Shown here one piece after another: positions 43,019 to 59,032 of a DNA stretch of 64,000 nucleotides. The stretch covers positions 15,810 to 79,809 of the forward strand of contig JAZOBE010000043.1 of the NCBI GenBank assembly GCA_045595785.1, in the 5' to 3' direction. The position numbers and the translations under genes were made by a program. Each line of letters starts with the position of its first letter. The first letter of the stretch is position 1. The DNA is from Eubacteriales bacterium (GTDB lineage: Bacteria > Bacillota > Clostridia > Oscillospirales > CAG-382). The notes under the pieces are model-generated. The model searched no databases. It was not told the DNA's origin and worked only from the letters and a program-made list of their open reading frames with translations.

Positions 43019-43105
43019 GCGGGTATGGCGGAATTGGCAGACGCGCTAGATTCAGGTTCTAGTGGGGGCAACTTCGTGTAGGTTCAAGTCCTATTACCCG
43101 CACCA
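43019..43105 (+). tRNA. tRNA-Leu (anticodon CAG), with encoded CCA
   Basis: Acceptor stem GCGGGTA/TACCCGC. Anticodon stem CTAGA/TCTAG with loop TTCAGGT. Long variable arm (class II). T-loop GGTTCAAGTCC. 3' ACCA. Confidence 0.95.
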
Positions 43106-43113
43106 AAGCATTC

Positions 43114-43165
43114 AAACCCGAACCTTTTACCAATCGGTGAAACGTTCGGGTTTGTTGTTTTTCTC
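43114..43165 (+). terminator. rho-independent terminator after tRNA-Leu
   Basis: aaacccgaac ... gttcgggttt hairpin followed by gttgttttt. Confidence 0.75.
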
Positions 43166-43195
43166 AATGAGACAGCGTAGTTAAAGAAAAATGAT

Positions 43196-43224
43196 GGAGG
43201 TACGGGTTTTGAACCTGTACCTCC
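43196..43224 (-). terminator. hairpin terminator of the integrase operon
   Basis: ggaggtacgggtt / aacctgtacctcc forms a 13-bp stem with one mismatch, just past the small ORF stop. Confidence 0.5.
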
Positions 43225-43232
43225 ATTGTTCT

Positions 43233-43397
43233 TTAGGTATCCTTTTCAGATTGTTCCTTTTTCCACTGTTCAAATTCTTGTCTGCCTTCTTCGGATTCAA
43301 AGAAGTCTACTATGTCCGGCAGAAAGCATTTTGCCAATGCTTCTATTTCATCTTCAGGTATGTGGGATTTGAAAATGATTTTAACCTCTCTGCCCAT
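43233..43397 (-). CDS. 54-aa acidic hypothetical protein downstream of the integrase (below the ORF-track cutoff)
   Basis: ATG with SD GAGGAGGGGA, 16 nt after the integrase stop. Translation: MGREVKIIFKSHIPEDEIEALAKCFLPDIVDFFESEEGRQEFEQWKKEQSEKDT. Confidence 0.3.
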   Translation of the reverse strand: MGREVKIIFKSHIPEDEIEALAKCFLPDIVDFFESEEGRQEFEQWKKEQSEKDT

Positions 43398-43412
43398 TTG
43401 TCCCCTCCTCTC

Positions 43413-44384
43413 TTATGAGTCTTTCAGAAATTCCGAATAGAACTTTTTAATGTCGTTGCGGTGGTGTCCCATACGCTCGCTCATCTCTTTATCAATCTGG
43501 CGTTCAGTCATACTGCTCTCGGCAATCAAGCGGCGGCGATTCTCCTGAAAGTACAGGTGTCTAAGTCCGTGCCAGGAGGGTCTTTTGATTCTGGGTTTAC
43601 AGTCAGGAGCAACATAATCACACCTATCGGGATCTACAAACTTTTTGCTATGATTGCTGCGCCAATTCTGTAACGAAGCCTTCTCCTTCTTTACGCTGTG
43701 TTTGTGGTTGTCGCAGATCAGATAATCCTTTGACTTTTTACCGCTTGCACGAAGATAAGCAACAATCTCATTTAGAATTTTCTCCTGAATCGGACGATCC
43801 ACAGGAATATCTCTTACAAGACCACCCTTGGTGTTCTTGACGTTCAACTGCTTATAGCGGATAGCATCCTCCAACTGATACAAACGGAGCGTAGCGGCTT
43901 CTTCAAAGCGTAAGCCATAGTATCTTGACAGATAGGCTTGAATCACAACATCATAGCGATTCATCGAACGGGCAACCTTGATCATCATATCAAACTCTTC
44001 GGGTAAAAACGCACGGTCAAATTCGTAGTCGTTCTTTTCGGATATACCCAAATCTCTGTTTGACGGCAGAATGTTTTTGCTGTGCGTCAGACTGTGATAG
44101 TGTCTGATTGCCGACATTTCGGTGCGGATGTAGCTGTTCAAACACTCTCTGTCGAAGAAACTTTCGATATACGGATAAATATATTTAGCCGATATATTCT
44201 TGAGATTCTTTAACTCGGTGTTTTCACCAAGCCATTTACAGAAACGATACATACCATCTTCATAGCGTTCGATACAACCGATACTGTTGATGTTACTGCT
44301 GGCTTTAAGATGATCTGCCTGCCCTATGAGATTTTTGGCTTTGTTCGCATTTCTGACCTTTCGTTGTTCTTCCGTAAGTGCCAT
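43413..44384 (-). CDS. tyrosine-type site-specific recombinase/integrase
   Basis: Start taken at MALTEEQ (SD GGAGG 7 nt upstream). Catalytic pattern: GLRFEEA (Arg), HGLRHLY (HxxR), MGHHRNDIKKFY (His/Tyr). Confidence 0.85.
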   Translation of the reverse strand: MALTEEQRKVRNANKAKNLIGQADHLKASSNINSIGCIERYEDGMYRFCKWLGENTELKNLKNISAKYIYPYIESFFDRECLNSYIRTEMSAIRHYHSLTHSKNILPSNRDLGISEKNDYEFDRAFLPEEFDMMIKVARSMNRYDVVIQAYLSRYYGLRFEEAATLRLYQLEDAIRYKQLNVKNTKGGLVRDIPVDRPIQEKILNEIVAYLRASGKKSKDYLICDNHKHSVKKEKASLQNWRSNHSKKFVDPDRCDYVAPDCKPRIKRPSWHGLRHLYFQENRRRLIAESSMTERQIDKEMSERMGHHRNDIKKFYSEFLKDS

Positions 44385-44521
44385 AGGCATTCCTCCTTTC
44401 TCTGAAATTGGCCTTTTGATTTCAGGTAAATGAAATATGAAAAAAGAGATTTGATTTGGCAAGTAAATTATGAAAGAAAATATTATCCATAAAATATACT
44501 CAAACCCGATTACCGAAAATG

Positions 44522-44550
44522 TTGATTTGTTTCCGTTTGCGTTGTATAAT
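44522..44550 (+). promoter_or_regulatory. promoter candidate
   Basis: TTGATT, 17 nt, TATAAT upstream of the DeoR-type gene. Confidence 0.55.
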
Positions 44551-44599
44551 ATCGGTGTCAGATCTGATAATACATTTGAATTAATTTGGAGGTATGGCT

Positions 44600-45376
44600 A
44601 TGTTTATGGAAGAACGCCATCAAGAAATTGCAGATATAATAAAAGCTAATGGAAAAATCACCGTTTCGGAAATTACAAACAAATATGGTATATCCGATGA
44701 ATCAGCTCGCAGAGATCTTCGATTACTTGAACAAAAAGGGATTTGTAAGCGAACTCATGGTGGGGCTATTTTAGCTTCACAGGTTGGATTGAAAGCTCCT
44801 GCCGATAGAGATTTCAGCTCTATGCAGATTTTAGATAATTACAAAGAAATCGCACGTGTTGCCGCAAGCAAAATCAAAGAAAACGATGTTATTTATCTTA
44901 CAAGTGGTTCTTTTGGATATATAATGCTTTCATATTTGCCTATGGATATGCATTACACCGTGGTTGTGAATTCGGTGGATATAGGTAAAGAATTAAGGAA
45001 CTTTGAGAATATTGAAGTATATATGATTGGTGGCAAAATGCGACAAAGCGGTTCGATAGTGGACAGTTTTGCAACCGAATTTGTAAGTAAATTGCATTTT
45101 GACCTTTGCTTTATTACGGGTTCGGGCTTGACTGCAGATTGTGGTTTATCCAACGGTACAGACGAAACTGCAACTTTCCAACGAACTGTTATCGCCAACA
45201 GTAAAAATAAATATCTTTTAATGCCAAGTGCCAAAATCGGCAATAATGCTTTTGTTAAGGTTTGCGACGTAGATGTTTTTAACTGTGTTATCACCGATTG
45301 TGATTGCGTTGAAGATCAGATTCAAGCTATCGAAGAAAAGGGCGTAGAAGTTATTGTTGTTGAGGAATCGAAATGA
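44600..45376 (+). CDS. DeoR/GlpR-family transcriptional regulator
   Basis: N-terminal winged HTH (RHQEIADIIKANGKITVSEITNKYGISDESARRDLRLLEQKG) plus a C-terminal DeoR sugar-binding-like domain. The ATG at 44600 has better SD spacing than the one at 44594. Confidence 0.8.
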   Translation: MFMEERHQEIADIIKANGKITVSEITNKYGISDESARRDLRLLEQKGICKRTHGGAILASQVGLKAPADRDFSSMQILDNYKEIARVAASKIKENDVIYLTSGSFGYIMLSYLPMDMHYTVVVNSVDIGKELRNFENIEVYMIGGKMRQSGSIVDSFATEFVSKLHFDLCFITGSGLTADCGLSNGTDETATFQRTVIANSKNKYLLMPSAKIGNNAFVKVCDVDVFNCVITDCDCVEDQIQAIEEKGVEVIVVEESK

Positions 45377-45561
45377 CCCGCGAGCAGAAGCTACGTAATC
45401 TCATTCTTGATAAATACAATAGTCTTAGGCAGTTCGCAATGGAAGCGGATATTCCGTACAGTACGCTTATGACTTTGTTATCTCGTGATATCGGCGGTGC
45501 TTCTTTTGACGTTGTGATGAAAATATGTAAAAAACTTGAAATAGATCCATTAGAGCTATAA
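45373..45561 (+). CDS. small XRE-family HTH protein
   Basis: 62 aa containing LRQFAMEADIPYSTLMTLLS...KICKKLEIDP. An ATGA overlap couples it to the DeoR gene. Confidence 0.65.
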   Translation: MTREQKLRNLILDKYNSLRQFAMEADIPYSTLMTLLSRDIGGASFDVVMKICKKLEIDPLEL

Positions 45562-45570
45562 AAAAATTCG

Positions 45571-45609
45571 GCGGGGCAGGAGCTTCAATCTCCTGCGCCA
45601 CCTTTTAAA
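45571..45609 (+). terminator. terminator candidate
   Basis: gcaggag cttcaat ctcctgc core hairpin with flanking G/C pairs, followed by ttttaaa. Confidence 0.5.
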
Positions 45610-45629
45610 TAGAAGGTCATTTTTGCCGT

Positions 45630-46087
45630 CATTCCGAAAGGATGGTCATAATCATATCGGAAATGTTTATTCAGCCGACTGTTTGATGTTTAATTGGTAT
45701 CATTCCGAAGTGTTATCCTTTGAACATCAAACAGCCGGAACACGCCGTAAGGCGTGCATACATAAATCAATAACAAATCCAAAGGGAATCATCTGTATAT
45801 GTATATCATCTTAAATCCGTTCCGAAATTATTTATCATTTTTCATTCCGAAATGAGCGCAAAGCATAGTTCTCCCATTGGCAGTTTTATCGGTTTTACCT
45901 GCCGTTACTCCCGTTTTCTTTTTCAAGGGTTCCGGAATGCTTTGCGAACAGGGGCTTTTTGTTCGCCACCGGGCTCAGTTTCTATTTCCCTGCGAGAAAT
46001 AGAAACTGGCCCAACGATGGTCATATCTATCATTCCGAAGGGTAAATCATAAGTCATTCCGATTCGCAAATCATTTTTATTCCGAAG
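45630..46087 (+). repeat. dispersed same-strand copies of the decamer TCATTCCGAA in non-coding DNA
   Basis: Exact copies start at 45630, 45701, 45843 and 46031. One- or two-mismatch copies start at 45818 (ccgttccgaa), 46055 (tcattccgat) and 46078 (ttattccgaa). A palindromic ttccggaa lies at 45931. Confidence 0.85.
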
Positions 46088-46104
46088 AGAGAATCATATT
46101 AAAT

Positions 46105-46510
46105 TGTTCCCATTAAAGTTGGTCAGTACTATGAGGCATACGCCCCAACGCATACCTGCCGCTTGACAGGTGCCCTGACGGGCTACGCCTACACCACACA
46201 CTAGCTATTAGATAGTCTACCGCTGAACTCGGCAGGGTGGCGGGGTTTCGATCTTCCATTGAAAGCCCATAACGTTGTCTGCTCAAAGGCAGATAAGCGG
46301 CTCTTCGCAGATGAGATAATTTAGTACGACAAGCTTCGTACAATTTTTGCTGCTCAACAAGTGAGCTTATTATCTCAACGCCCCGTTGTCTTCCGCACGG
46401 GTGGCTGTCAGCAAATGGTGCAATATACGTACAAAACCGTTGCACATCCATACGCTCTTCCATTTACCATACGTCGGTCACTCCAGCCATACTGTGACCG
46501 CACCTGTTTT
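46105..46510 (-). ncRNA. candidate structured RNA of unknown class (strand assignment tentative)
   Basis: A GC-rich block inside AT-rich non-coding DNA. Many nested complementary segments are visible, for example gagataat...attatctc enclosing hairpins gctca/tgagc and gtacga/tcgtac, also cctgccg...cggcagg, gccc/gggc and aggtatgcg/cgtatgcct. The only ORF there has a non-protein-like composition. Confidence 0.3.
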
Positions 46511-46517
46511 GAACATC

Positions 46518-46544
46518 TACAATTTGACTTGCTTTTTCAACATT
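46518..46544 (-). other. 8-codon mini-ORF (MLKKQVKL) with a strong SD, immediately upstream of the candidate RNA
   Basis: AGGAGGAATTGAA ATG TTG AAA AAG CAA GTC AAA TTG TAG. A second AGGAGGAATT copy lies 24 nt further upstream. Confidence 0.3.
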
Positions 46545-46681
46545 TCAATTCCTCCTATCTGTATTACTGTAATTCCTCCTTAGTGTATTTAAAGAGTTCG
46601 TATGTAATATGGAAGAGAGCATTGCGAAATGCAAGTAAAAATACAATTTAATTGGAAAATGAGAAGAAGGATTAACGAGAA

Positions 46682-46710
46682 AGGCAGAGAGTGGTTTACT
46701 CTCTGCCTTC
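46682..46710. terminator. hairpin (possible terminator or element boundary)
   Basis: aaggcagagag tggttta ctctctgcctt forms a perfect 11-bp stem. Confidence 0.45.
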
Positions 46711-47097
46711 TTCATGTGAAATTTAATAATTCAAAAAGTCATAAGTGTCGAGTTTGCTGATATATTATAGAATTGACATAATAATCATGTAAATTCTTCT
46801 CAAACCATGCAATATAACATTGATTCTAATTTAGGTTCAAAATATAATATGCAGATTCGTTAAATGCTTATAGAACAGTTTTACAAAAAGAACATTCTGG
46901 TATTGAATATGTCAAAATAAAAATTCTAACCGATGAGAAAATATGCCCAAATGAAAAAGTACATTTGATGGGATAACAGCACGGTTCAAAAACGATAATC
47001 ATATCACGCAAGAAAACCAGTGTATATAACTTTCACACAAAATTCTAGTTCTTATATTTCCGTTCAAAATAGCATTGCAATAATCTCTTCAAAACTA

Positions 47098-47979
47098 TTA
47101 TATTAATTTGAATAAATCAATTGTTTCTCCCATCTGGTTGTTATTTACGTTTACATCATTAATAGCAGGTGCGCTCTGCAAACTATTACCTTCAGAAACC
47201 ATAACTTTTTGCTTTTGCTTGACATGTTCCTTTATTTCTCTAAAAATAGTTTCATAATCTTCTGGTTTAATCATCTTGTACTTCTCGCTAAATCCAACAG
47301 GCGACTTTCCAATGGGAAACATGTCACGTAGCCTAGACATGTCAGCTCCTTCGCCAATGCCTAACGGAAAAATATGCAAATCGCCATTTATGACACGCTC
47401 ACGAATATTGGCAAACTCTGGGCGAGGGTCATCGGTTGGAGTTCCATCAGTCATAAATACGAGAATAGGCGTGTAATAATCATTATCGGCATTTCTTAAT
47501 TCGTTACGCATTTCATCTAATTGCGCAAGTGCAGTTCGTATTCCATCTCCCATGGAAGTTTCAGCCTTTTCAACTGAACATTCACAAGAATGAATACTCA
47601 AAGCTTCACAATCTAAAAAATCATATTTTACATTAGCAAATCGGCTATATGTAACAATGGATACAGCGACTTGACGACATAATTCCGTATCTCGTTTTAA
47701 ATCAGTTAAAAGACCACAAAGAGTCTCGTTCATTTTGTCAATCTTCTTATAATGTGCGTATCCTGGCCGAATATCATTTAAACTAAAATAGTTTACATTA
47801 TGTCCATCCGAGAATCCCCTGCCTGTATTGCGTTTCAAGCCGCCCTCTTGTATCCACCATTCATCCATAGACTGACTTACATCTACGCAAAAACAAATAA
47901 GTGCACGTGGGTCCCCATTGATTAGCAATCTACGCTGTTGGCTAAAATATTCACTTGAATAGTATGCTTCGTTTGCCAT
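47098..47979 (-). CDS. TerY-like von Willebrand factor A (vWA) domain protein
   Basis: MIDAS DVSQS (D33, S35, S37), later ETSMG and FMTDGTPTD. 293 aa, cytoplasmic (no signal peptide). SD GAGGAG. This is the last gene of the three-gene operon. Confidence 0.8.
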   Translation of the reverse strand: MANEAYYSSEYFSQQRRLLINGDPRALICFCVDVSQSMDEWWIQEGGLKRNTGRGFSDGHNVNYFSLNDIRPGYAHYKKIDKMNETLCGLLTDLKRDTELCRQVAVSIVTYSRFANVKYDFLDCEALSIHSCECSVEKAETSMGDGIRTALAQLDEMRNELRNADNDYYTPILVFMTDGTPTDDPRPEFANIRERVINGDLHIFPLGIGEGADMSRLRDMFPIGKSPVGFSEKYKMIKPEDYETIFREIKEHVKQKQKVMVSEGNSLQSAPAINDVNVNNNQMGETIDLFKLI

Positions 47980-48001
47980 AATCGTCTCCTCATTTTAATT
48001 A

Positions 48002-50152
48002 TTAATATCTTCGGTTGCGACATTTAGGACATCGAGTCGGTAAATTAAGTCCTTTCTTTTTATAAAACTCAACTTCACCATTAGTAATGGGGAAACGACA
48101 ACCACAGTATCGATTGCTGCAAGAACGCCACATATAAATATCATTATTCCATTTTTCGCGTTCGCGCTTGGCATCATTCAACTTGATTTTGAAACATTCA
48201 CCGCAAACATTAACCTTAAGATTGCGTAGTTTATCTTCAAATTCTCGCATTTGATATATTGGAACTTCACGACCACAATTGCCACATTTCGTAGTACGTT
48301 TTTTACAATCTCTACACCAACGTTGATCATACCAATTAAAATCCATTTTCCCTATATCGTGAACAATTTTGGTACGATTCGTATAATAAAACTCTCGTCC
48401 GCAACACTCGCATTTAAAATGCACTGCTGACTTATCGTTAGCACAAGGAAGGCATATCCTATATCCTCTTTCCCATATATTAATCGTTTCTTTATGAACT
48501 TGAACATTATGCATAAAGTAAAAATTAGGATGTTCTTGTCCGCAATGTTTGCAACGTACAAAAATCCTCTTATTATCTCTACGAAAAGTTTTGGGAAATA
48601 TATTGCATGAATCGGATTTATCTAAAGTAGATAGACTTCTATTAAAATCTCTAACTATATTGAGCCAATCTTTCGCCTTTAATCTTTTGTTAGGAACAGC
48701 ATATTTACCATTTGGGTTAAAAGTATTAAAAAAGGCCTCGCACATTCTATACGGTAGATGATCCCATACAATACGCCATATACCACTAGGACGCTCTGCA
48801 TCTACAGAACGCCTCATACCACCAATACCGAACGGAAAGGTCATGTTGATAATACTAATTCGTTCATCTGTCCCTTTTGATTTAGCATACGGAAATTTCC
48901 CTGGCATCATTAGCATAAATGTCAACAACGCAACTTGATAATTTTCTTGATCTGCTGTATAAAGAAGACGCGGATAATCATCACGTAACAATTCGGGAGG
49001 GGTAAATGTTTGATTTCGTGAAATAGCTGGATATCCTTCAATTTGCCAACAATCTGTATCAACGAAATATACCTCATCAGGTTTTTCAACATATATTGTG
49101 GCTGGATTTATACATCCGAAGTATAACCCATAATTATGCATACTGCAAATTTTATCAAGAATCGTTATTGCTAACGTACAAAGATCTTGCCTATCCCATC
49201 GTGGAAAATATTGAAACAATCCCGTGACTCCATTTAATACTGAACGTGTCAGCTGTATCCCTTTAGAAGCTGGCACCAATATACCGACAAATTCTCCAAT
49301 ATCATTTTTTAAGATATCTACCGGCCAACATACCCCTGGTATTTCTACTTTTCCCTTTATCATCCTTCGAGCTTTATTCTCCCAAATGTCTATTCGAAGC
49401 GATTTTAAAGTGTATATTTTTGCAAAAAATCCACTATCATTAGTTGCATAGGTTATTGAAGTATGGTCTGTCATCATTGCATCTTTTAAATAAAAAACAG
49501 TACGGCAACACTCTGCTATAACCCTTTCACCATTGGTTGGAACACTGCTAGTTGCATTAACGACCGAATTAATAGATACAAGTTCAGTAGTTAACTTAAA
49601 AAGATTTTCAGTTTTGTATTCAATTTGCTTTTTTGTGTAAAGTGCTTGAAGTTGCCCTTCTTGATTCATACCATACCATCGCAATTGTAATCCTTTAGAA
49701 TTTGCCGATGATTTAGCATCGTAACCATTATCACCGCTAGCGGTAAGAAAAACAATCTTCCAATCAAGATATTGGTCAGCAATTTTCTCAAAGCATGCAT
49801 TTAGATCATTCCCCGCAAGTTCTCGATAATCTTCAGAAATCAGATCCTTACATTCTTCTTTAGTGAGTTTCATTATTTCAAAGCTCGGCACATAAAAAAA
49901 TTTCGTGGTATGCATAGAGTCTTTATTAACATGCCACTCATTTGCAAATTTAGAGAAAGCAGTACTTTTAACAAATGAAGCATCTACAAACACTCGAATT
50001 TGTTGTGATTTTATCAAATCACTTATTGTTGTCCCAAATTTTGGCCAATTCTCGAGCTTATTATTTGATTTTTCATTATGCGATAAAGAAGGTTCTTTTC
50101 TTTCGTTCTCATTTTTTATCTCTGCTTTATTGAATAAAGTTGTAAATGCCAT
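48002..50152 (-). CDS. multidomain protein: PIN-like N-terminus, protein-kinase-like core with a substituted catalytic loop, four C-terminal zinc-ribbon units
   Basis: Kinase-like landmarks: FAK245, E258, H339-NYGLYFG-C347, VD365TD, TPPE387, MPGKFPY. Acidic PIN-like pattern: VFVD57AS, FE92I, GND116, SGD141. CxxC pairs: C534/C537-C567/C570, C581/C584-C613/C616, C623/C626-C650/C653, C683/C685-C708/C711. The last unit resembles the F..T..E..FY..KG...P.RC..CR zinc-ribbon. Confidence 0.65.
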   Translation of the reverse strand: MAFTTLFNKAEIKNENERKEPSLSHNEKSNNKLENWPKFGTTISDLIKSQQIRVFVDASFVKSTAFSKFANEWHVNKDSMHTTKFFYVPSFEIMKLTKEECKDLISEDYRELAGNDLNACFEKIADQYLDWKIVFLTASGDNGYDAKSSANSKGLQLRWYGMNQEGQLQALYTKKQIEYKTENLFKLTTELVSINSVVNATSSVPTNGERVIAECCRTVFYLKDAMMTDHTSITYATNDSGFFAKIYTLKSLRIDIWENKARRMIKGKVEIPGVCWPVDILKNDIGEFVGILVPASKGIQLTRSVLNGVTGLFQYFPRWDRQDLCTLAITILDKICSMHNYGLYFGCINPATIYVEKPDEVYFVDTDCWQIEGYPAISRNQTFTPPELLRDDYPRLLYTADQENYQVALLTFMLMMPGKFPYAKSKGTDERISIINMTFPFGIGGMRRSVDAERPSGIWRIVWDHLPYRMCEAFFNTFNPNGKYAVPNKRLKAKDWLNIVRDFNRSLSTLDKSDSCNIFPKTFRRDNKRIFVRCKHCGQEHPNFYFMHNVQVHKETINIWERGYRICLPCANDKSAVHFKCECCGREFYYTNRTKIVHDIGKMDFNWYDQRWCRDCKKRTTKCGNCGREVPIYQMREFEDKLRNLKVNVCGECFKIKLNDAKREREKWNNDIYMWRSCSNRYCGCRFPITNGEVEFYKKKGLNLPTRCPKCRNRRY

Positions 50153-50168
50153 TTTTCCTCCATTAACA

Positions 50169-51431
50169 CTAATTCACAATAAAAGATTTTATTTCATCGA
50201 GTAATGCTCTGGTATTGGGTTCGCAATTAGGAATCGATTCCAACTCATAATATATATTTTTTACTTTTTGTAGTTCGCTGTTAAAACCACTTTTTGATTT
50301 ATTGTAAAAGAATAACAATAAACTTCGACCAATTGTTTCATTATGATTAGATTGCCAAACATTTTCTGCTTCTCTCACCCATTCGCCTTTCATAAATTCA
50401 TGCCGCTGGTTATGTGCAAGATTTTTTACTAGATTAATAAGCCTGTTTGTTTTATTGTCTAAACTATCATAATCACAAATCATTGGAAAATAATACTGTC
50501 TATCGATGTTATATACATATGCAGAGTCTTCAATAAAACCAGTTTTAGGTGACCAACGATAAGCTCGAACATAAGTGTTATTATCATTTCGCCATTCATA
50601 ATATATTACGCCAATATCTGAGTAGGAGTCTCCCGATTGTGGTGCAGATTTACCACATGCGATACTCGGAATCGTTCGATTAGGCAAGGAAATTGTCGAA
50701 ATAGGATTATTGGCATATTTATGCATATCTCCATGAAGATATGCACTAATGCATCTTCGATCTATAACGCTGTGTATTCTGTCAATGTGACTTGAAAATA
50801 GCGTTTCAATCCAATGATGTCCTAACATTAATGTGGGAAGATTAATGTCAATTGAACAGTTCGATAATGAATTAATGTCAACTATTTGTTTATGCATATC
50901 TCCATCACTAATTAATGCAGTGTTAAGCAACAAAATATTTATCAGATTGTTCCAAACGATACAATTAACGCCGCTAGGATTAGTAACTCTCCCGTCTGTC
51001 ACGCCAGAGCTGGCATAAAAGTTACGCGCAAAAATGTCATATTCAACAAATCCATCATACAGTGACTTTGTGCCATTTAAGTATTGCGAGTATATATTAT
51101 AGTTACTTTCAGAATGATCACATATAGTCCTAATAGCTTCGCGCCTTCCATCATAGTTATTCACATCATGATTTCCAGGAACTAAAAATGTATCTTTTTT
51201 ATCGATATTAAATGCTGTTAAAATCGACTCTAAATATTTCATTGAAACATTAAACTCTGTTTTATATTTTGCATGGCGAAAATCTCCCGTTGCTATAAGA
51301 AATTGTGGGGAGATTTTTTTTGCTAATTTGTTATAATCTTCTGAAATAAAAGTTGTATCTGCTTCTGAAAATACATGTAAATCAGATATTTGTAGCCAAG
51401 ATGCATTAACATGTTTGCGATTGGTATTCAT
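50169..51431 (-). CDS. calcineurin-like metallophosphoesterase with a C-terminal extension
   Basis: Motifs in canonical order: ISDLH (DxH), ATGDFRH (GD), PGNHD (GNHD), LGHH, YLHGDMH (GHxH-like). An unassigned helical tail of about 120 aa follows. Confidence 0.85.
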   Translation of the reverse strand: MNTNRKHVNASWLQISDLHVFSEADTTFISEDYNKLAKKISPQFLIATGDFRHAKYKTEFNVSMKYLESILTAFNIDKKDTFLVPGNHDVNNYDGRREAIRTICDHSESNYNIYSQYLNGTKSLYDGFVEYDIFARNFYASSGVTDGRVTNPSGVNCIVWNNLINILLLNTALISDGDMHKQIVDINSLSNCSIDINLPTLMLGHHWIETLFSSHIDRIHSVIDRRCISAYLHGDMHKYANNPISTISLPNRTIPSIACGKSAPQSGDSYSDIGVIYYEWRNDNNTYVRAYRWSPKTGFIEDSAYVYNIDRQYYFPMICDYDSLDNKTNRLINLVKNLAHNQRHEFMKGEWVREAENVWQSNHNETIGRSLLLFFYNKSKSGFNSELQKVKNIYYELESIPNCEPNTRALLDEIKSFIVN

Positions 51432-51804
51432 AATAGCTATGCTCTCTTACTTAATTCTTAAAAATTTTGATAGTCGAAAAGACAATCTATATGATTCAAT
51501 CATACAGTTTCTGTGAAATTATCGATTTGTTAAGGTGTGTTTGACCAAAATCCATGCATGAATTTTGGAATGTATTTCAACAAAAATCAATATACCTTGG
51601 AGTGAACCGACAAAATTCGGGAGTGAATGGAGAATGCGAGATATGACATCACTTCGTAAACGGTCATTCATACGATATTTGTCAATTTTTACTACTCTAC
51701 TTATATAATGTCGAAAAAGGTCAAAACGTCTATAAAAAAGTTTGAAAATTTTAATTGTTTTTTCCACAAAGCGCAAGATGTAATTTCACTAGACATAAAT
51801 CGTA

Positions 51805-51836
51805 GACAAAGAAACCGCCGAGGAATTCTCGACGGC
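51805..51836 (-). terminator. rho-independent terminator
   Basis: On the minus strand, a ccgtcgag aattc ctcggcgg hairpin is followed by tttctttgt, after the stop at 51870. Confidence 0.6.
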
Positions 51837-51869
51837 TGATTTTAAATATTGACGATTATGTGTACGATA

Positions 51870-53117
51870 TTAATTAAGTTTTCCCCAATAGCAAACGGTT
51901 ATTATTGTTGTGTTGATTTTTCCGTCTTTGGAGTATTTATCGAAAATTGCTTTTACATCGCTAATAAAACACTCGTAATCTTCGCTGGATTTGTCAGGTG
52001 CAAAGGAAGTTGACAACATCCCACCGCAAAACTCCTCGAAAGTTTGTTGTATACTGTTATCGAATTTATTGGTATTATAATTATTTTCGCCAAACAGATT
52101 ATTCGCACGTTCTTTATAAGAAATTCCCGATGTTTTTTGTTTTTTCTTTGCACGATATGATATTTTTAGATTTGTCAGTTCCTCATCAAACTCATCTCCC
52201 CCGAACACATTCCACAGCAAAAACACATAACCGTCTTTTTTCAAAATTCTGCGCATTTCGGTATGTGTTTTCTCATTATCAAACCAATGGAAAGATTCAG
52301 CAGCAGTTATTATATCTACGCTGGAATCAGGAAGCGTTGTTTGCTCCGCAAAAGAAGCGATGGAAATATAATTGGCGTGGCAACTCATTATATCCTCGGC
52401 GCTTTTTCTCATTTGTCTGTTGGGTTCGATAGAGTATAGCGTTTTTGCACTTTCTACAAGCAATTTCGAGAGTTTTCCTGTGCCGCTACCTATGTCTGCA
52501 ATAACGGGCGTTTCGATTTGCGCCAAAATGAGTTCAACCACCGCAGAAGGATACGAAGGTCTATAATTTTTATAATTAGAGGTTTGCAAAGTAAATAGCG
52601 AGCAATCGAAGCGATATTTATTAATTTGTCGCTTTAAGGAATCAGAAGTAAAATATGCATCAATATCGGCTTCGTCAACGGAATATCCGTTCAACAAACT
52701 TTGTATAACGGCTTCAGCAAGTAATAATTCTTTGCCGGATTCGTCAAGAAAACAATTCTCAATATCGAAATTCATTTTATTGTTGATTCCTTCGATTGCG
52801 CCTTTATAGAAAGTTGAATATTCACCAAAACAAGATTTCAAGCTTTCAATCGCAACTATTCCCACCTTTAATTTCTCGATGTCTACTTTTCTGTTCTTGC
52901 GAATAACTAACTGACCACCGCTTAAAATTTTATCGGTTGTGGTGTCCAAGACATCTGCTAAGTCAAGCAATATAGAAGCATCGGGAAGATTTTCGCCATT
53001 CTCCCATTTAGAAACAGCTTGGAACGTTACCGAAAGTAATTCCGCCAAGCCTTTCTGCGAAAGTCCTTTTTGTTTGCGAAGCGTTTGAATGTAATTGCCG
53101 ATGTTCTTTGTGTTCAT
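51870..53117 (-). CDS. XRE-family HTH fused to a class I SAM-dependent methyltransferase
   Basis: N-terminal IQTLRKQKGLSQKGLAELLSVTFQAVSKWENG. MTase motif I IADIGSGTGKLS and post-I/II regions downstream. Confidence 0.8.
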   Translation of the reverse strand: MNTKNIGNYIQTLRKQKGLSQKGLAELLSVTFQAVSKWENGENLPDASILLDLADVLDTTTDKILSGGQLVIRKNRKVDIEKLKVGIVAIESLKSCFGEYSTFYKGAIEGINNKMNFDIENCFLDESGKELLLAEAVIQSLLNGYSVDEADIDAYFTSDSLKRQINKYRFDCSLFTLQTSNYKNYRPSYPSAVVELILAQIETPVIADIGSGTGKLSKLLVESAKTLYSIEPNRQMRKSAEDIMSCHANYISIASFAEQTTLPDSSVDIITAAESFHWFDNEKTHTEMRRILKKDGYVFLLWNVFGGDEFDEELTNLKISYRAKKKQKTSGISYKERANNLFGENNYNTNKFDNSIQQTFEEFCGGMLSTSFAPDKSSEDYECFISDVKAIFDKYSKDGKINTTIITVCYWGKLN

Positions 53118-53379
53118 TTTACGCCCTCCGTTTGTTGATTACGAATATATGATACCAAAAAACACAGAAAAAACAATAACGGTATTCTTGAAGTTGCTCA
53201 ACTTAAAATAGAATTCGTCGACTTATTCTATTGCATTTTTATTTGCTTTAAAGTGTATGACTAACCTATAAGGCGAAGATAAGTAAAATAATAGGTTATT
53301 GTTTTATAATTATTGATAAGATATAATATGATTAAAAGCAGGGCTCAGCTTAAATATTAAATTTCAAAGGATTTGTAAT

Positions 53380-53997
53380 ATGTTATATTTAACGTCAAAT
53401 TTAAAAAAGTATCGGATTTTAAAAGGATTGACACAAGAAGAATTAGCTAATTATTTGAATATCACACCTCAAAGTATTTCAAAATGGGAACGTGGTGAAA
53501 CATATCCCGATATAACATTACTACCTGCATTAGCGAACATTTTCGAAACGAGTGTAGATTTGCTAATCGGTATGGATGTAATGCGTGCAGATGAAACAAA
53601 ATATAATATTCACAAAACTGCGAATGGTTTTATGAAAATCAGCGATTATGAATCAGCTGAAAAAGTGTACCGCGACGCTCTTCTAATATATCCGAATAAT
53701 TCGGGAATGCTTCTTGGACTTGGAAGTGTATTAGCCTTGAACAATAAAACCGAAGAATCCATTAAATTTATAGAAATAGGATTACCGTTGTCAAACAATG
53801 AAAAACAAAAAGCCACTATGCGTGCAACACTTTGTTTCCTATATCAAAAACACGGAGAAATAGACAAAGCGCAAGCTCTTGCTTCTGAATTGCCGCATTT
53901 AAGAGAAAGCCGAGAAATCATTCAGCCTATCATTATGAAAAATCCCTGTATCGATGAAATTGACAAAGAACTCAAATCGATTTTATTAGGAGAATAA
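53380..53997 (+). CDS. XRE-family HTH fused to a TPR-like helical domain
   Basis: N-terminal LKKYRILKGLTQEELANYLNITPQSISKWERG. The C-terminal half has TPR-like A/Y/L periodicity (AEKVYRDALLIYPNNSGMLLGLGSVLA). Confidence 0.7.
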   Translation: MLYLTSNLKKYRILKGLTQEELANYLNITPQSISKWERGETYPDITLLPALANIFETSVDLLIGMDVMRADETKYNIHKTANGFMKISDYESAEKVYRDALLIYPNNSGMLLGLGSVLALNNKTEESIKFIEIGLPLSNNEKQKATMRATLCFLYQKHGEIDKAQALASELPHLRESREIIQPIIMKNPCIDEIDKELKSILLGE

Positions 53998-54016
53998 TAG
54001 CAGCATAATTAACACA

Positions 54017-54047
54017 ACAGCCGAGGAATTACCTCGGCTGTTCTTCT
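54017..54047. terminator. bidirectional terminator
   Basis: acagccgagg aatta cctcggctgt lies between convergent genes. Confidence 0.7.
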
Positions 54048-54108
54048 ACGTATTATTAAGCATGTTCTGTAAAGCAGATCAAATTAACCGCCACCAATTC
54101 CGCAAGGA

Positions 54109-54996
54109 CTACTTTATACGTTCAACCGGAATCGCAACTCTTGCTCCAAGTTCAGGCTCTGCACCGAGGTTTAGTGTGGGTGCAATACTTGTTGCATATT
54201 TATAGCCGTATCGCTCGAAGTCATAATGTTCAATCGCCTTGAACACTTGCACGATATATTTACCAAAATCATCCGGATTAGCGTAAGGCTCGCTTTGAAA
54301 ATAAAGCATTACACATTCGGGAAGTTCTGCCACTCTATATCCTTCTGGCAGAGGTTTTTCGTAGTCGATAGGCACTTCAACACCTGCGGCAATTGTACGG
54401 ATACCTTGCTCTTGCAAAAAATCGGGTAAATTAATCAACGCTGCCGTATCAAACTTTTCGTGTATGCTATTAAGCAAGCCTTCCCAATCACAACCAACTT
54501 CCTCGCAATAAGAAAGGTAGTCGGTTGCCGACTTTGATGTAAGATAAATCAATTTCCTTTTAGGTCTGTTAACGGGTGTAACCGTGCAAATTGTTGGCGT
54601 GTCCATTCTTTGTCCCTCTTTCAAAATATGATAATGATTAGCAGGGTGCTGAGTAAATAACGGAATAGCAATTTGGCTCTTACGGTACTCTTTTGGCGTA
54701 ACAGAAAAACGCTTTACAAATGACCTTGTGTAACCTTCATGAGATTGATAGTGACTGTCAAAAGCAACATCAATAACAGAGTTCTCGGTGTCAAGCAGTT
54801 TGTTCGCACTCTCGCTCAATACAACGGCATTTATGTATTCGCTAAGCGTAATCTTCATATGCTTTTGAAATAATCTGTCAAGTTGACGGCGAGAATATCC
54901 AACTGCGCTACAAACATTCTCAACACCAAATTCCATATCAGTGTGATGTTCTTTGATATACTCCTGTGCCTTAACTACCGCTTTTATATCATCCAT
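54109..54996 (-). CDS. AraC-family transcriptional regulator with a GyrI-like effector-binding domain
   Basis: N-terminal double HTH (VCSAVGYSRRQLDRLF ... AFDSHYQSHEGYTRSFVKRFSVTPKEYR). The size and pattern of the C-terminal half are typical of the GyrI-like fold. Confidence 0.75.
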   Translation of the reverse strand: MDDIKAVVKAQEYIKEHHTDMEFGVENVCSAVGYSRRQLDRLFQKHMKITLSEYINAVVLSESANKLLDTENSVIDVAFDSHYQSHEGYTRSFVKRFSVTPKEYRKSQIAIPLFTQHPANHYHILKEGQRMDTPTICTVTPVNRPKRKLIYLTSKSATDYLSYCEEVGCDWEGLLNSIHEKFDTAALINLPDFLQEQGIRTIAAGVEVPIDYEKPLPEGYRVAELPECVMLYFQSEPYANPDDFGKYIVQVFKAIEHYDFERYGYKYATSIAPTLNLGAEPELGARVAIPVERIK

Positions 54997-55102
54997 CTTG
55001 CACCCTTAATATATGATAGCAGAATATTATTTATATTTCTTGACAAATATGGACAGTTTAAAAAAGTAAAAATCACTTCAAAGGTTATTATTTAGTTTTG
55101 TT

Positions 55103-55669
55103 TCAATCTGTATAAAGTTTTCCGTAAATAACGCAATCGTGCAATCCATCGTTCAACGGGAAACAATGGCGCAGATGACCTTCTTTTATGAAGCCGTTCT
55201 TTTCGAGAACTCTTTGTGATGCGATATTGTTCGGTTCGACGGATGTGAAGATGCGTTCAAGCTTTAACTGTTCAAATCCAAACTTTACAACAGCTTCTGT
55301 GCAAGCCGTCATAATACCTTTGTTCCAATACTTACGGTCAAGGAAATAACCAATATTTGCAGCGGTATTGTTGTTTTGAAAATCGCTTAATAGGATTCTT
55401 CCCAAAACCTCATCGGTATTTCTGTCTGCGATAGTCCAATTATATTCACGGCATTTTTCAAAAGCATTGATTTGGTTTTGGATGATTTTCTTTGCCTGTT
55501 CAAGATTTGCAGGTGGTTTGCCGTAACCCAAATAATATTTCAAGGCGTCGGAATCACTGTATATTTCAAAATACTTTTCGCAATCCCGTTCCGGCTTGAC
55601 TTGTCGCAGGATAATGTTTTCATTAACTGCAATCGGCTGAAATTCAGCAAACATTTCTTTTAATGTCAT
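55103..55669 (-). CDS. GNAT-family N-acetyltransferase (RimJ/RimL-like)
   Basis: Start at MTLKEM (SD GGAGA). Contains WNKGIMTACTEAVVKFGF (acetyl-CoA binding motif A region) and NIASQRVLEKNGF. Confidence 0.8.
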   Translation of the reverse strand: MTLKEMFAEFQPIAVNENIILRQVKPERDCEKYFEIYSDSDALKYYLGYGKPPANLEQAKKIIQNQINAFEKCREYNWTIADRNTDEVLGRILLSDFQNNNTAANIGYFLDRKYWNKGIMTACTEAVVKFGFEQLKLERIFTSVEPNNIASQRVLEKNGFIKEGHLRHCFPLNDGLHDCVIYGKLYTD

Positions 55670-55689
55670 AGTACATCTCCAAACATTTT

Positions 55690-56448
55690 TTATGATAATT
55701 TCTGCGCAACGACACAATACCAATCAAATGTATCAACATCAAAATCAGCAAATGCGGGCATACACATTACCTGTATATTTCCATATCCAAGGCTCGTCAG
55801 TTTGTTCATAATATCGCAACGTTTAATTGGAAAAACGTGTTCTTTGAAAACTTCATTTTCGGTAATAATACCATTTTTCTCCAATAGATATAAGATGTTG
55901 AAATCCATTGAACCATCCACGTTATAATCCCATAGTTGAACACAGTTGATTCTTGTTTCGCCGATGAATGCAGGATTGTATGGCCAAAAACGTTTACGCT
56001 CAACTAATATTTTGTCCCAATTTCTTGTATCGATATAAATATATCCGTTTTCATTCACAAGTGAATCCATTTGCTCGATTACATCGAATGCTTCTAAATT
56101 AGTAACATAAGGTAGCGAATTTCCCGTGGAGGCAACACAATCGAATTTCTGATTAAGACGACTTGAAACATTCCTAAAATCGCATTGAGTTAGTTTGATT
56201 GAAATGTCCTTGCTTTTTGCTTTTTTAGCGCATCGGTCAAGCATAGTTTGACTTATATCCGAACCATACAATTCTATTCCCAATTCCGCCAATGGAAGTG
56301 TGAGTGAGCCAGTTCCGATACTAACATCAAGAAAAGATTTGATATAGGTACCTTCCAATACCTTTTTCCAATGCAATATTGTTTGTTGATATTTACGCTC
56401 TGTTTCAAAAGCGTCATATAAATCGGCTCTATCGTATAAACTTGGCAT
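55690..56448 (-). CDS. class I SAM-dependent methyltransferase
   Basis: Motif I FLDVSIGTGSLTLPLAE, followed by YGSDIS and FDCVASTGNSL. Confidence 0.8.
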   Translation of the reverse strand: MPSLYDRADLYDAFETERKYQQTILHWKKVLEGTYIKSFLDVSIGTGSLTLPLAELGIELYGSDISQTMLDRCAKKAKSKDISIKLTQCDFRNVSSRLNQKFDCVASTGNSLPYVTNLEAFDVIEQMDSLVNENGYIYIDTRNWDKILVERKRFWPYNPAFIGETRINCVQLWDYNVDGSMDFNILYLLEKNGIITENEVFKEHVFPIKRCDIMNKLTSLGYGNIQVMCMPAFADFDVDTFDWYCVVAQKLS

Positions 56449-56473
56449 GATTTTTCTCCTAAATTATAACAAT

Positions 56474-57106
56474 TCAATCATTAATATATGACATATCACT
56501 TAACTTCGATATCATACGATGTTCACCATCATCAAGCAAAATCGAAACACTACCGGCTTTGCCCCAAATCACAGTTTGGTCGAGTGAATGTATACCCATA
56601 CCCAACCAAATCGCAAACAAAACACTTAAAGTTCCGCTATGCGAAACAATTATCAAGTTCTTTTCCGAGGGAAAGATTATATCGTTATAGAACTGCAACA
56701 CCCTATCCCAAACGTCACGTCTTGTTTCTGCATTACGGAACACTTGTCCATCGGCAGTACAAGCCCAATCTATCGTTCCTTCCCAAACAGGGCAACATAG
56801 ATTGTTTTTTGCCCATTCTTTGGATTTTCCTATTGCTTCACCTAAATTGAACTCTCTGATTCGTTCATCAAATATAGGGGTTGTATTAAGATAACTTGAA
56901 ATAACCTCGGCGGTATGTTTTGTTCTTAATAAATCCGACGAATATATTGTATAATCGTCGCCGGTGATTTCGGCAGAAAGTTTCTTGGCAATGTTATGTG
57001 CTTGCTTAATACCTAATTCGGTTAAATCCCAATTGTACCACGAACCGATCATTCGGTTGATATGTTGTTCGGATTGAGGATGCTGGATGACAATGATTTT
57101 TTTCAT
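56474..57106 (-). CDS. histidine phosphatase (phosphoglycerate mutase-like) family protein with an atypical N-terminal motif
   Basis: Overall pattern KIIVIQHPQSEQH...DLTELG...SSDLLRTKHTAE...VSHSGT. The usual RHG reads QHP. Confidence 0.65.
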   Translation of the reverse strand: MKKIIVIQHPQSEQHINRMIGSWYNWDLTELGIKQAHNIAKKLSAEITGDDYTIYSSDLLRTKHTAEVISSYLNTTPIFDERIREFNLGEAIGKSKEWAKNNLCCPVWEGTIDWACTADGQVFRNAETRRDVWDRVLQFYNDIIFPSEKNLIIVSHSGTLSVLFAIWLGMGIHSLDQTVIWGKAGSVSILLDDGEHRMISKLSDMSYIND

Positions 57107-57170
57107 ATAACGGATATTGCCTCATTTCAATTTTTCTGAAATGCTTTAGTATAAAAGCATTTCAAGAGTT

Positions 57171-57746
57171 TTATATGCTTCGTATAGATAATATTTCATC
57201 TACGAGTGCTTTGGGTAGACGTGGAAACGGAATGATGGGTTTCGGAGGACATAAATCTCCTATGGTTTTCTCGTACCAAACGACGTCTAACCACTGTTCT
57301 TTTTTATAACCAACCGCATGATATGTGCCAACGACATTAAATCCGAATTTTTCGTGCAAAGTAGCGCTTGCGGGATTTGGTGTAGTAACACCGGCGTAAA
57401 GACTGACGAAATTTTGAAGTTTTAATATATCGATTAGCGCTGTATATAACCGTGTACCAATCCCTTGGTATCGCTTAGTTTTATCAATATATATAGACAA
57501 TTCCGCATCCCAACCATACGCCGCTCTTTCTCTAAATGCTGATGCGTATGCATATCCAATAATACAACCATCTTCTTCAGCAACAATAAACGGATATTTT
57601 CCCAATTTCTCTGTAATGCGTTTCGAAAATTCATTGACATCTGGTGCTGTGTATTCAAATGATATTGTTGTATTTTCGACATAATATTTATAAATTTCAG
57701 AAAGCTCTTTTGCATCTGATATATTTGCCACGCGTAAATTCATCAT
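57171..57746 (-). CDS. GNAT-family N-acetyltransferase (phosphinothricin acetyltransferase-like)
   Basis: Start at MMNLRVA. Contains YYVENTTISFEYTAP ... RYQGIGTRLYTALIDILK ... NPASATLHEKFGF, typical of the PAT/bar-like subgroup. Confidence 0.7.
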   Translation of the reverse strand: MMNLRVANISDAKELSEIYKYYVENTTISFEYTAPDVNEFSKRITEKLGKYPFIVAEEDGCIIGYAYASAFRERAAYGWDAELSIYIDKTKRYQGIGTRLYTALIDILKLQNFVSLYAGVTTPNPASATLHEKFGFNVVGTYHAVGYKKEQWLDVVWYEKTIGDLCPPKPIIPFPRLPKALVDEILSIRSI

Positions 57747-57801
57747 ATTCTTTCTCTTTCCTAAAATAACTTGCAATTGGTTTTCAAAACGGGTTATTCG
57801 T

Positions 57802-58593
57802 TTATTTCATATCCTGCTTACAAAGCTGTTCTTTACAACGTTCAAATCTTTCTTTACCGCAATATGGAATAACGAGCAGGTCGAGCTGTTCGGGCGTAAG
57901 TCCTACATTGCATCTTCCGGGATGCGTAAAAGCGCCTAAAACCGTTTCGCAAGGGTATTCCTCGCATTGCACGCAAACGTCATATCCTTTTCCCTTTGCA
58001 CAATCTCTTGTTTTACAGCCTGAATAACAACCGGCGCAGTTGACGCCGGAATAGTCCTCTTTTTGTTCATCGGGCGAGAAGTATATTTTGTAATTCTCGT
58101 CGGTGAACAGAACTCGGTTTTCTTTGCCGCCATTAGTGGCTCTTAAAAGACATTGGTCACAACGGTTACCGCAACAGCCTATTTCAGCATCTTTTAAATT
58201 CTCAACCTTACGGTTGGGTTTCTTTTTTATCTTAATGAGTTCAATAATTTCATCGACGTTTGTATTGACGTCAACATCAATGAACATCCATTTTCCGTCG
58301 TGATATGTACGGCTGTTGTCATAGTAATTGAGAATATAATCGGAAAAATTATCTCTGACCGCGTCAAACTTTTCTCGTTCCGCTTTTCCGAATATGACAA
58401 GTGCATTGAAACGGTTTTCTTGTACACTCAAGCTAACAAGCGTTTTGCCGCTTTTGCGGAATTTCAATATTTCCTTTCCATCCCACCATTCTTCCATTAT
58501 ATAGTAGGCACGAATAAAACCAACGAGCTTTTCCCAAGACTTCGAGACTTCATCACCGAGCTTGTTCTGTATATTTATATATGCTTCAATCAT
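57802..58593 (-). CDS. two-domain hypothetical protein (DUF3788-like N-terminus, Cys-rich DUF3795-like C-terminus, from memory)
   Basis: The C-terminal half has CCGNRCDQC ... CAGC ... CxxxxxxxxCVQCEEYPC clusters. The family names are from memory only. Confidence 0.5.
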   Translation of the reverse strand: MIEAYINIQNKLGDEVSKSWEKLVGFIRAYYIMEEWWDGKEILKFRKSGKTLVSLSVQENRFNALVIFGKAEREKFDAVRDNFSDYILNYYDNSRTYHDGKWMFIDVDVNTNVDEIIELIKIKKKPNRKVENLKDAEIGCCGNRCDQCLLRATNGGKENRVLFTDENYKIYFSPDEQKEDYSGVNCAGCYSGCKTRDCAKGKGYDVCVQCEEYPCETVLGAFTHPGRCNVGLTPEQLDLLVIPYCGKERFERCKEQLCKQDMK

Positions 58594-58622
58594 TATTTTC
58601 CTCGTTTCTTTTATAAACTGAA

Positions 58623-59003: not shown

Positions 59004-59032
59004 ATTGTGCCTCTTATAAAATACAGAATATT

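Follow-up and report, generated by a model that had tools for sequence, protein, structure and literature searches.

A putative structured RNA gene that accompanies a tyrosine integrase on islands of gut Clostridia

The window analyzed here is a stretch of 64,000 nucleotides (nt) from a Eubacteriales bacterium of the CAG-382 lineage (assembly GCA_045595785.1, contig JAZOBE010000043.1, positions 15,810 to 79,809 of the forward strand), in which an island inserted at a tRNA-Leu gene carries a tyrosine integrase gene and, upstream of it on the same (minus) strand, what is very probably a new structured RNA gene linked to this integrase. The first-pass annotation of the window had singled out a self-complementary block (46105-46560) as a candidate structured RNA or leader. 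The feature is larger than first described, the predicted transcription unit running from ~46638 to 45560, with the block as its 5' third only. As read from the sequence and its relatives, this block is the folded 5' part of a predicted non-coding RNA gene of ~1.04 kb (~46600-45560, minus strand), and the RNA family to which it belongs was uncatalogued until now. The unit comprises the following features, in which SD stands for Shine-Dalgarno and ORF for open reading frame:

46606-46638, minus: promoter-like site with the TTACTTGC motif; -35 TTGCAT at 46634-46629, 17-nt spacer, -10 CATATT at 46611-46606
46547-46581 (46581-46572 and 46556-46547), minus: conserved SD-like element made of two tandem AGGAGGAATT copies
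46517-46543, minus: mini-ORF, MLKKQVKL plus stop; peptide not conserved
46290-46510, minus: variable 5' domain D1, with hairpin P1 (46500-46475), a longer helix (GGTAAATGG/CCATTTGCT) and a junction insert (46376-46313)
46144-46289, minus: conserved core D2, ~150 nt, with hairpin H1, three-way junction H2(H3,H4) and three-way junction H5(H6,H7)
46121-46146, minus: hairpin H8 (GGGGC/GCCTC) and a single-stranded tail with consensus AGTNCTNACC
45629-46086, minus: 3' half, ~500 nt, six TTCGGAATGA copies between three structures
46008-45976, minus: 3'-half hairpin with conserved inner GTTTCTAT/ATAGAAAC
45946-45857, minus: long helix of the 3' half
45738-45675, minus: 28-nt inverted repeat
45560-45602, minus: intrinsic terminator, a 13-bp GC-rich hairpin followed by seven T

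Conserved structure of the RNA unit

The order of promoter, AAGGAGGAAT, variable 5' domain, core, motif copies among hairpins and terminator is common to the relatives of this unit. The homologue search and covariation analysis proposed with the first-pass annotation brought together over 25 homologues of the unit, from gut bacteria of Oscillospirales type, with strong covariation among them. Of 164 genomes belonging to the same family, 12 were found by whole-genome search to contain the region, and a pattern scan of species genomes added 11 further real loci, in Oscillospiraceae, Acutalibacteraceae, Ruminococcus and metagenome-assembled genomes labelled 'Eubacteriales/Clostridia', while more loci came from metagenomes and from look-ups based on the integrase. 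The covariance model built for the core (R1) detects it in all units as well as in distant genomes; among the sampled genomes of the order, a covariance model located the core in 6 of 151, belonging to at least four families. Another hit of the genome pattern scan (L040) was rejected as a chance match inside a Bacteroidales coding region.

Taken by itself, the sequence of the window is not persuasive as to self-complementarity beyond chance. The block is indeed GC-richer than its surroundings at the place first described (GC content of 0.45-0.515 over 46000-46499 vs 0.265-0.335 over 46500-47099), and every one of the complementary segments listed for it can be found in the sequence. A comparison of its fold with shuffled sequences, also proposed at that stage, gave for the minus strand a minimum free energy of -137.2 kcal/mol and a z-score of -1.65, which is not significant (8 of 100 shuffles fold equally well), and a z-score of -3.80 for the plus strand, which in this single sequence thus performs better. 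The structure of the block is considered real because its helices covary strongly among relatives.

The core structure was taken from one sequence and its pairs were counted on a plain MAFFT alignment of 17 units and on a model-fitted alignment of 21 sequences given by R1. RNAalifold, applied to plain MAFFT alignments, retrieved no more than two helices, the subtypes being out of register with each other in these alignments, and the single-sequence structure, the covariance model and independent folds were therefore used instead. Standard pairs fill 77.8% of the cells in the model-fitted alignment and 74.8% in the plain one, against 34–43% and 37–41%, respectively, in controls where the partner was slid by 1-3 columns. 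Changes on both sides of a pair occur in 34 of the 50 core pairs (model-fitted) or in 21 pairs (plain). The covariation score is 0.315 in the former case (slid controls 0.07-0.11) and 0.262 in the latter (slid controls 0.08-0.11); 0 of 500 shuffles reach either score, a count that overstates significance as sequences related by a tree are not independent, a weakness from which the slid controls and the single-sequence folds are free. All these covariation figures are conservative, since both alignments mis-register some helices between subtypes. When 23 sequences were folded independently, a common topology H1, H2(H3,H4), H5(H6,H7), H8 was obtained with different helix sequences: for example, H2 appears as CCGA/UCGG, CCAC/GUGG, CCAU/AUGG, CCGU/ACGG or CACCAUA/UAUGGUG, and H6 as GCCG/CGGC, GCCC/GGGC, GUCGG/CCGAC or GUUC/GAAC.

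Outside the core, conservation follows the subtypes. D1 is common to subtypes A (that of the window) and B, and the other subtypes carry an unrelated 5' domain; P1 and the arms of the junction show compensatory and G-U changes among subtype A relatives. The stem of H8 has a different sequence in nearly every subtype with its pairing kept, and the tail that follows is conserved in all of them; a search by eye for a pseudoknot partner of this tail found nothing consistent. The position of the terminator is conserved in all units, with compensatory stem changes in L053 and L066 and a different hairpin in L062.

Three of the five pairings initially named in the block are kept among relatives, and two are not the conserved pairs. 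The ggtcac/gtgacc pairing is the conserved hairpin P1, and gccc/gggc is the conserved helix H6; the three-way junction closed by gagataat/attatctc (46376-46313) is also conserved, but only within subtype A, among the five members of which it shows G-U and compensatory changes. In all subtypes, however, the segments of the supposed long-range pair cctgccg/cggcagg form separate local hairpins, H3 and H7, and the aggtatgcg/cgtatgcct hairpin gives way to a conserved alternative consisting of the closing helix H5 and the short hairpin H8 (46146-46133).

The functional strand is taken to be the minus strand, because of fold stability, an excess of G-U pairs and the polarity of the promoter and terminator. 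The minus-strand sense gives the more stable fold in 16 of 17 blocks, and the modelled helices contain 98 G-U pairs vs 56 A-C. Together with covariation, these features support the initial proposal of a structured non-coding RNA on this strand.

A protein-coding reading was ruled out on either strand by frameshifts, stops and the lack of third-position bias. The two ORFs that overlap the block, of 116 amino acids (aa) on the minus strand and 96 aa on the plus strand, are both broken in the four closest relatives by stop codons and by frameshifting indels, and substitutions show no preference for any codon position (e.g., 11/15/9 and 22/20/20 in the closest relatives), in agreement with the early judgement that the long overlapping ORF is unlikely to encode a protein. 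Neither ORF matches a family in Pfam, NCBIfam, PADLOC or PHROGs. Likewise, no match to a known RNA family was obtained, as already suspected: at the gathering score, Rfam 15 gives only tRNA in the window, with ROOL, GOLLD, OLE, raiA, HEARO, tmRNA, RNase P, T-box and riboswitch covariance models all falling short of that score; at E-values up to 10, it gives nothing relevant in 45300-47200, and chance microRNA or snoRNA matches were all that the search yielded besides tRNA; and scans of ten other variants again returned only tRNA. Searches of phage and plasmid collections yielded no match for the DNA or for the integrase protein. In the literature searched, neither this RNA nor a tyrosine recombinase with an RNA partner is described, the tables of PMC8040213, a 2021 catalogue of thousands of gut RNA motifs that could hold fragments of it, being unchecked.

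At the 5' end, homology among all relatives begins exactly at TTACTTGC, and the sequence upstream is unrelated cargo. A simple promoter consensus scan did not flag the RNA promoter, the -35 of which matches at only 3 of 6 positions. The two SD copies noticed initially are present and form a 24-nt tandem repeat, and the 8-codon mini-ORF is present as well, although its coordinates were off by one base (it runs from 46543 down to 46517). In most relatives AAGGAGGAAT lies ~58 nt after TTACTTGC, the -35 motif, with or without an ORF, and a start codon stands 6 nt past the SD in ~12 of 20 units. The encoded peptide varies: MLKKQVKL in the window is reduced to ML-stop in its close relatives L029 and L039, the start codon is lost in L033, subtype B has MFVKAM or longer unrelated tails, and there is no ORF in G024 and G068, which represent two subtypes. 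The resemblance to a leader peptide or translation-sensing attenuator drawn in the first-pass annotation is thus not borne out, since conservation extends no further than the SD, usually followed 6 nt later by a start codon. This pattern, in which an SD-like 5' sequence persists independently of a functional ORF, suggests by analogy that the SD serves as a ribosome-binding 5' stabilizer rather than as part of a sensing leader peptide, because it is kept while the mini-ORF peptide is not conserved. In Firmicutes, a strong SD near the 5' end blocks 5' decay, as in STAB-SD and hbs (PMC4113751, PMC5737220). The present element is like these in that a strong 5' SD-like sequence is kept regardless of any meaningful ORF, and differs from them in capping a predicted non-coding RNA instead of an mRNA.

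The 3' half is marked by a repeated motif, TTCGRAATGA (UUCGRAAUGA in RNA; also UUCGGAAUGA), present in 6-12 same-strand copies per unit. In the window, the TTCGGAATGA copies start at 46086, 46063, 46039, 45851, 45709 and 45638, all on the minus strand, and the motif, which is limited to a single strand of the unit, is absent from the rest of the island. Three of the repeats are in tandem, 23-24 bp apart; overall the 10-nt cores are spaced irregularly, at 23-330 nt. Most copies lie in linkers and one lies in the loop of the long inverted-repeat hairpin, and the outer pairs of the 3'-half hairpins covary. A near-copy of the motif (AAUCGGNAAUGAA) also occupies the loop of H1 in about half of the subtypes (L027, L054, L076, L062). 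The motif itself varies, with GGA in the window and GAA or GAT in L062 and G101, and TTCGAAATGA is found in L062.

The integrase, its island and the attachment sites

Seven further features, listed here from the integrase promoter outwards, define the module to which the RNA unit is linked and the ends of the island:

44462-44434, minus: integrase promoter-like site TTGCCA-17-CATATT, conserved between terminator and integrase gene
44384-43413, minus: tyrosine integrase, Xer/Cre-like; R-H-R-H-Y catalytic pattern (R, H-x-x-R, H, Y)
43397-43233, minus: small acidic ORF, 54 aa, conserved; overlaps the end of the integrase gene
44594-45376, plus: DeoR regulator, cargo; absent here in most relatives
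45373-45561, plus: Cro/C1-type helix-turn-helix (HTH) gene, cargo between RNA terminator and integrase promoter
43019-43108, plus: tRNA-Leu and left island junction, core GCACCAAA
61666-61676, plus: right island junction, direct repeat GCACCAAAAAA

The integrase is the only protein of at least 80 aa common to all loci, the remainder being variable cargo. Its AlphaFold model (predicted local distance difference test score of 88) aligns over its full length with XerA, IntI and Cre as well as with the arm-less portion of Tn1549 Int, and the modelled protein has two predicted domains and no separate arm-binding domain. In most relatives the integrase gene starts 100-150 nt past the RNA terminator on the same strand, and, wherever the contig permits a check, the core lies upstream of a same-strand integrase homologue, including integrases that are only 29-36% identical. 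The initial remark that no downstream gene follows the structured block therefore holds in this window but not in most relatives; no such gene was noticed here because the DeoR and HTH cassette sits between the RNA terminator and the integrase promoter. Insertions of 1-2.6 kb, partly on the opposite strand, separate the RNA and integrase genes here and twice in G048, where the core is located 2.2 and 3.5 kb upstream of an integrase homologue.

The small ORF downstream of the integrase is found in nearly all elements, with up to 89% identity where the integrases exceed the reach of blastn. It has no Pfam family, and it may encode a directionality factor. In L084, an element devoid of the RNA, the equivalent ORF encodes a protein of the Tn916-Xis family.

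The limits of the island were obtained by comparison with genomes of the same genus. Synteny with eight such genomes ends just past the 3' end of tRNA-Leu, at 43105-43107 where matches reach it, and G006 (locus L051), the closest of them, has its tRNA directly joined to the sequence lying after 61676 in the window, i.e., an empty site. The core GCACCAAA, an 8-nt repeat, recurs at 61666; a 21-nt direct repeat of the 3' end of the tRNA was looked for and not found. The synteny break, the empty site of G006 and the repeated GCACCAAA thus delimit an 18.6-kb island (43103-61676) in tRNA-Leu, and the RNA gene, the integrase and the small ORF occupy its tRNA-proximal end. Relatives are inserted at tRNA-Leu, tRNA-Ala or tmRNA, always at a CACCA end. 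Four of them (L075, L076, L077, L078) carry one identical 324-aa integrase beside tRNA-Ala(CGC) or tmRNA, with the same island end sequence, the use of both sites by an identical integrase being explained by their shared CCACCA 3' end (in tmRNA, that of the tRNA-like domain).

Sequences resembling regulatory sites, and regulator genes, are also found around the unit. The motif TTTACTTGC lies at the -35 region of both the RNA gene (46631-46638) and the integrase gene (44458-44466), on the minus strand and likewise in relatives, and the RNA promoter of subtype B is, in addition, overlapped around its -10 by an inverted repeat, TACGCCT..AGGCGTA; by their sequence, both look like operator sites for a shared regulator. 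Cro/C1-type HTH genes occur beside the RNA unit in differing places: in L076-L078 such a gene (34-322, minus) is divergent from the RNA promoter, and the HTH gene of the window (45373-45561, plus), which is not a close homologue of the latter, is convergent and placed after the RNA terminator.

Possible roles of the RNA

The role that we favor, with a probability of roughly 0.3-0.4, is that of a multivalent protein-binding RNA serving integration or excision of the island, with the integrase or the product of the small ORF as its partner. The conserved SD would load a ribosome or 30S subunit and so keep 5' exonuclease away from this long untranslated molecule; the short ORF would have no role of its own, and the core D2 would be the folded functional heart of the RNA. 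The 6-12 UUCGRAAUGA copies exposed in linkers and hairpin loops would form a multivalent platform for one protein, most simply the integrase of the island or its small acidic companion, so that the RNA might hold, titrate or assemble the recombinase and gate excision or integration. Such an RNA would act in trans, because cargo can sit between its gene and the integrase gene. That it should be a required integrase cofactor, replacing arm-type DNA sites and bending proteins in the assembly or gating of the recombination complex, seems improbable.

Several observations weigh against the multivalent protein-binding reading. The transcript, its ends and its processing are predicted only, and the minus-strand sense is favored less clearly in the 3' half (11 of 16 sequences). 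In subtype B the loop of H1 is devoid of the motif, and in subtype A, to which the window belongs, it holds only an approximation of it (AAUGGAAGAUCG, 46250-46262). Same-strand direct repeats are equally typical of DNA iterons. Some relatives of the integrase lack the RNA, namely L084 (47% identity) and several order-level loci, and L075 and L038 carry truncated units; given these truncations, an integrated island does not strictly need the RNA to be maintained.

Two other ways of tying the RNA unit to recombination were rejected. Lambda-type arm sites are bound by an N-terminal arm-binding domain and are situated no more than a few hundred bp away from the crossover. It is unlikely that the repeats represent such sites, because the integrase model is devoid of an arm-binding domain and the repeats are far from the island ends; a role as arm-type or att-end sites was rejected, the repeats being 2.5-3 kb away from the junction and absent at both island ends. 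A guide-RNA role was discarded as well, since only CAAAGCATTC (8-10 nt) is common to the RNA and the left junction, with ~0.3 such matches expected by chance; in a search for 8-mers common to the RNA and both island junctions, the CAAAGCATTC match was not reproduced in the tmRNA and tRNA-Ala elements.

Among the explanations that dispense with a partnership in trans, an autonomous 'ornate' RNA unrelated to recombination, acting as a decoy against host or phage factors or self-assembling like ROOL and GOLLD, would fit a large, multi-domain, covarying molecule carried on a mobile element beside tRNA genes, with its own promoter and terminator, in islands whose cargo is defence-like (restriction-modification, TIR, the VWA/phosphoesterase operon described below) and at a variable distance from the integrase gene. 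We nevertheless regard it as rather doubtful, as cargo varies freely while the RNA stays fixed beside integrases that are only 29-55% identical, and as the RNA and integrase promoters share TTTACTTGC, which suggests co-regulation. The closeness of the terminator to the integrase gene (100-150 nt upstream, same strand, in most relatives), the frequent SD and start codon, and the Cro/C1-type repressor gene that diverges from the RNA promoter in some elements would instead suit a giant cis-acting leader of the integrase, in which translation of the mini-ORF or a factor bound to the repeats controls read-through of the terminator, a model not far from the attenuator evoked in the first-pass annotation. 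A pure cis-leader is unlikely, however, because the RNA gene is separable from the integrase gene, by 1-2.6 kb partly on the opposite strand in the window and twice in G048, and because the integrase has its own promoter-like site, conserved between the terminator and the gene. Besides, the peptide varies or is absent among the units, no pairing that could act as an alternative antiterminator was observed, and a covarying RNA of 1 kb far exceeds the needs of an attenuator.

A replication or transfer origin of the excised island, with DNA iterons, an inverted-repeat nick site and either an RNA primer (as ColE1 RNA II) or a single-strand origin made of folded single-stranded DNA, would account for the three tandem repeats 23-24 bp apart beside an inverted repeat, for the truncation of L038 exactly in the loop of this repeat, and for transcription directed toward the repeats. 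Little probability is given to it, as the unit has no conserved replication initiator, primase, relaxase or rolling-circle Rep beside it, the terminator and SD, both conserved, would be left without a role, G-U-rich helices and covariation across several junctions fit RNA better than single-stranded DNA, and no plasmid or phage record bears any similarity to it. As to a decayed protein-coding gene or chance self-complementarity, the non-significant single-sequence fold of the minus strand and the 116- and 96-aa ORFs overlapping the block could have pointed that way, but the comparative data, i.e., frameshifts, stops and even codon-position substitutions in close relatives, the absence of a protein family match and the strong compensatory changes, already refute this explanation, the likelihood of which is close to nil.

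Comparison with known systems and neighboring genes

Large intricate bacterial RNAs are rare, and ROOL, GOLLD, OLE and raiA are among those that are unexplained. ROOL and GOLLD, in particular, are large ornate RNAs of Firmicutes, carried by prophages or mobile elements near tRNA genes. The present RNA is similar to them as a large multi-domain covarying RNA borne by a mobile element near tRNA genes in Firmicutes, and differs from them by the lack of an Rfam match, by its SD cap and repeated 10-nt motifs, and by a fixed linkage to a tyrosine integrase instead of phage genes. HEARO and the omega RNAs of IscB and TnpB are likewise large structured RNAs linked to an enzyme of a mobile element, but here Rfam gives no HEARO match, and neither a nuclease gene nor a guide segment at the end of a transposon is present.

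A parallel in gene order is given by the IS110 bridge RNA and the IS1111 seekRNA, structured non-coding RNAs encoded just upstream of the recombinase gene (PMC11208160). The island of the window shares this arrangement of a structured RNA just upstream of a mobile-element recombinase. However, the candidate partner is here a tyrosine recombinase (XerA/IntI/Cre fold) and not a DEDD enzyme, the RNA is ~5 times longer, and loops matching target or donor were not found, the only junction match (8-10 nt) being at chance level.

As to the repeats, many same-sense copies of a short motif, some of them in hairpin loops, are also found in CsrB/RsmZ and ToxI, and the order of promoter, repeats, terminator and candidate partner gene is that of ToxI. 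ToxI-like type III systems have uniform tandem repeats of ~34-36 nt followed by an endoribonuclease toxin gene. By contrast, the unit described here has 10-nt cores at irregular spacing and an integrase gene downstream, and thus does not belong to this type; it does not qualify as a CsrB/RsmZ RNA either, as the motif is not GGA-based in all variants and most copies lie in linkers. By analogy, the candidate partner would be a recombinase here and not CsrA or an endoribonuclease. A single weak match to RsmZ was obtained, on the opposite strand and outside the unit. Finally, the succession of SD, short ORF, structured RNA and terminator before a gene resembles the ermC and trp leader-peptide attenuators, from which the unit is distinguished by a peptide that is not conserved, a leader of ~1 kb, and a downstream gene with its own promoter-like site.

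The persistence of the RNA beside a tyrosine integrase, across recombinases diverged to ~30% identity, provides it with a clear genetic partner, in islands with defence-type cargo from human and animal gut Clostridia. If the RNA controls or assists recombination, RNA-assisted DNA rearrangement would extend from IS110 to the far wider field of tyrosine recombinases, and, if the integrase-cofactor reading were true, this would be the first RNA-dependent tyrosine recombinase. Even with no role in recombination, the RNA constitutes a well-supported new family, fit for an Rfam entry and for structural work.

The cargo of the island includes, upstream of the RNA unit, an operon on the minus strand (47098-51431) that encodes a VWA-domain protein of 293 aa, another protein of 716 aa that has a treble-clef zinc finger at its C-terminus, and a 420-aa calcineurin-like phosphoesterase with a weak PADLOC match to the defence 'Endonuclease effector' (E = 7e-16); this operon is probably defence cargo of the island. 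It is accompanied by a fusion of HTH and S-adenosylmethionine (SAM) methyltransferase (51870-53117, minus, 415 aa) matching the mad2 and RmrA-type models of PADLOC, and by an adjoining HTH-TPR protein gene (53380-53997, plus), regulatory or defence-type island cargo. Other islands carry restriction-modification or TIR genes as cargo.

The truncated unit of L038 (reverse strand, ~2780-3010) has lost its 5' part and kept the 3' repeats, terminator and integrase; a host gene adjoins the element precisely within the loop of its long inverted repeat, and this breakpoint may be a hotspot of breakage or recombination. Just upstream of the RNA promoter in the window, there is a perfect 12-bp hairpin followed by T-rich sequence (46681-46709, minus strand). 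It drew several chance microRNA-family matches when Rfam was scanned permissively, and in all likelihood it terminates the VWA operon.

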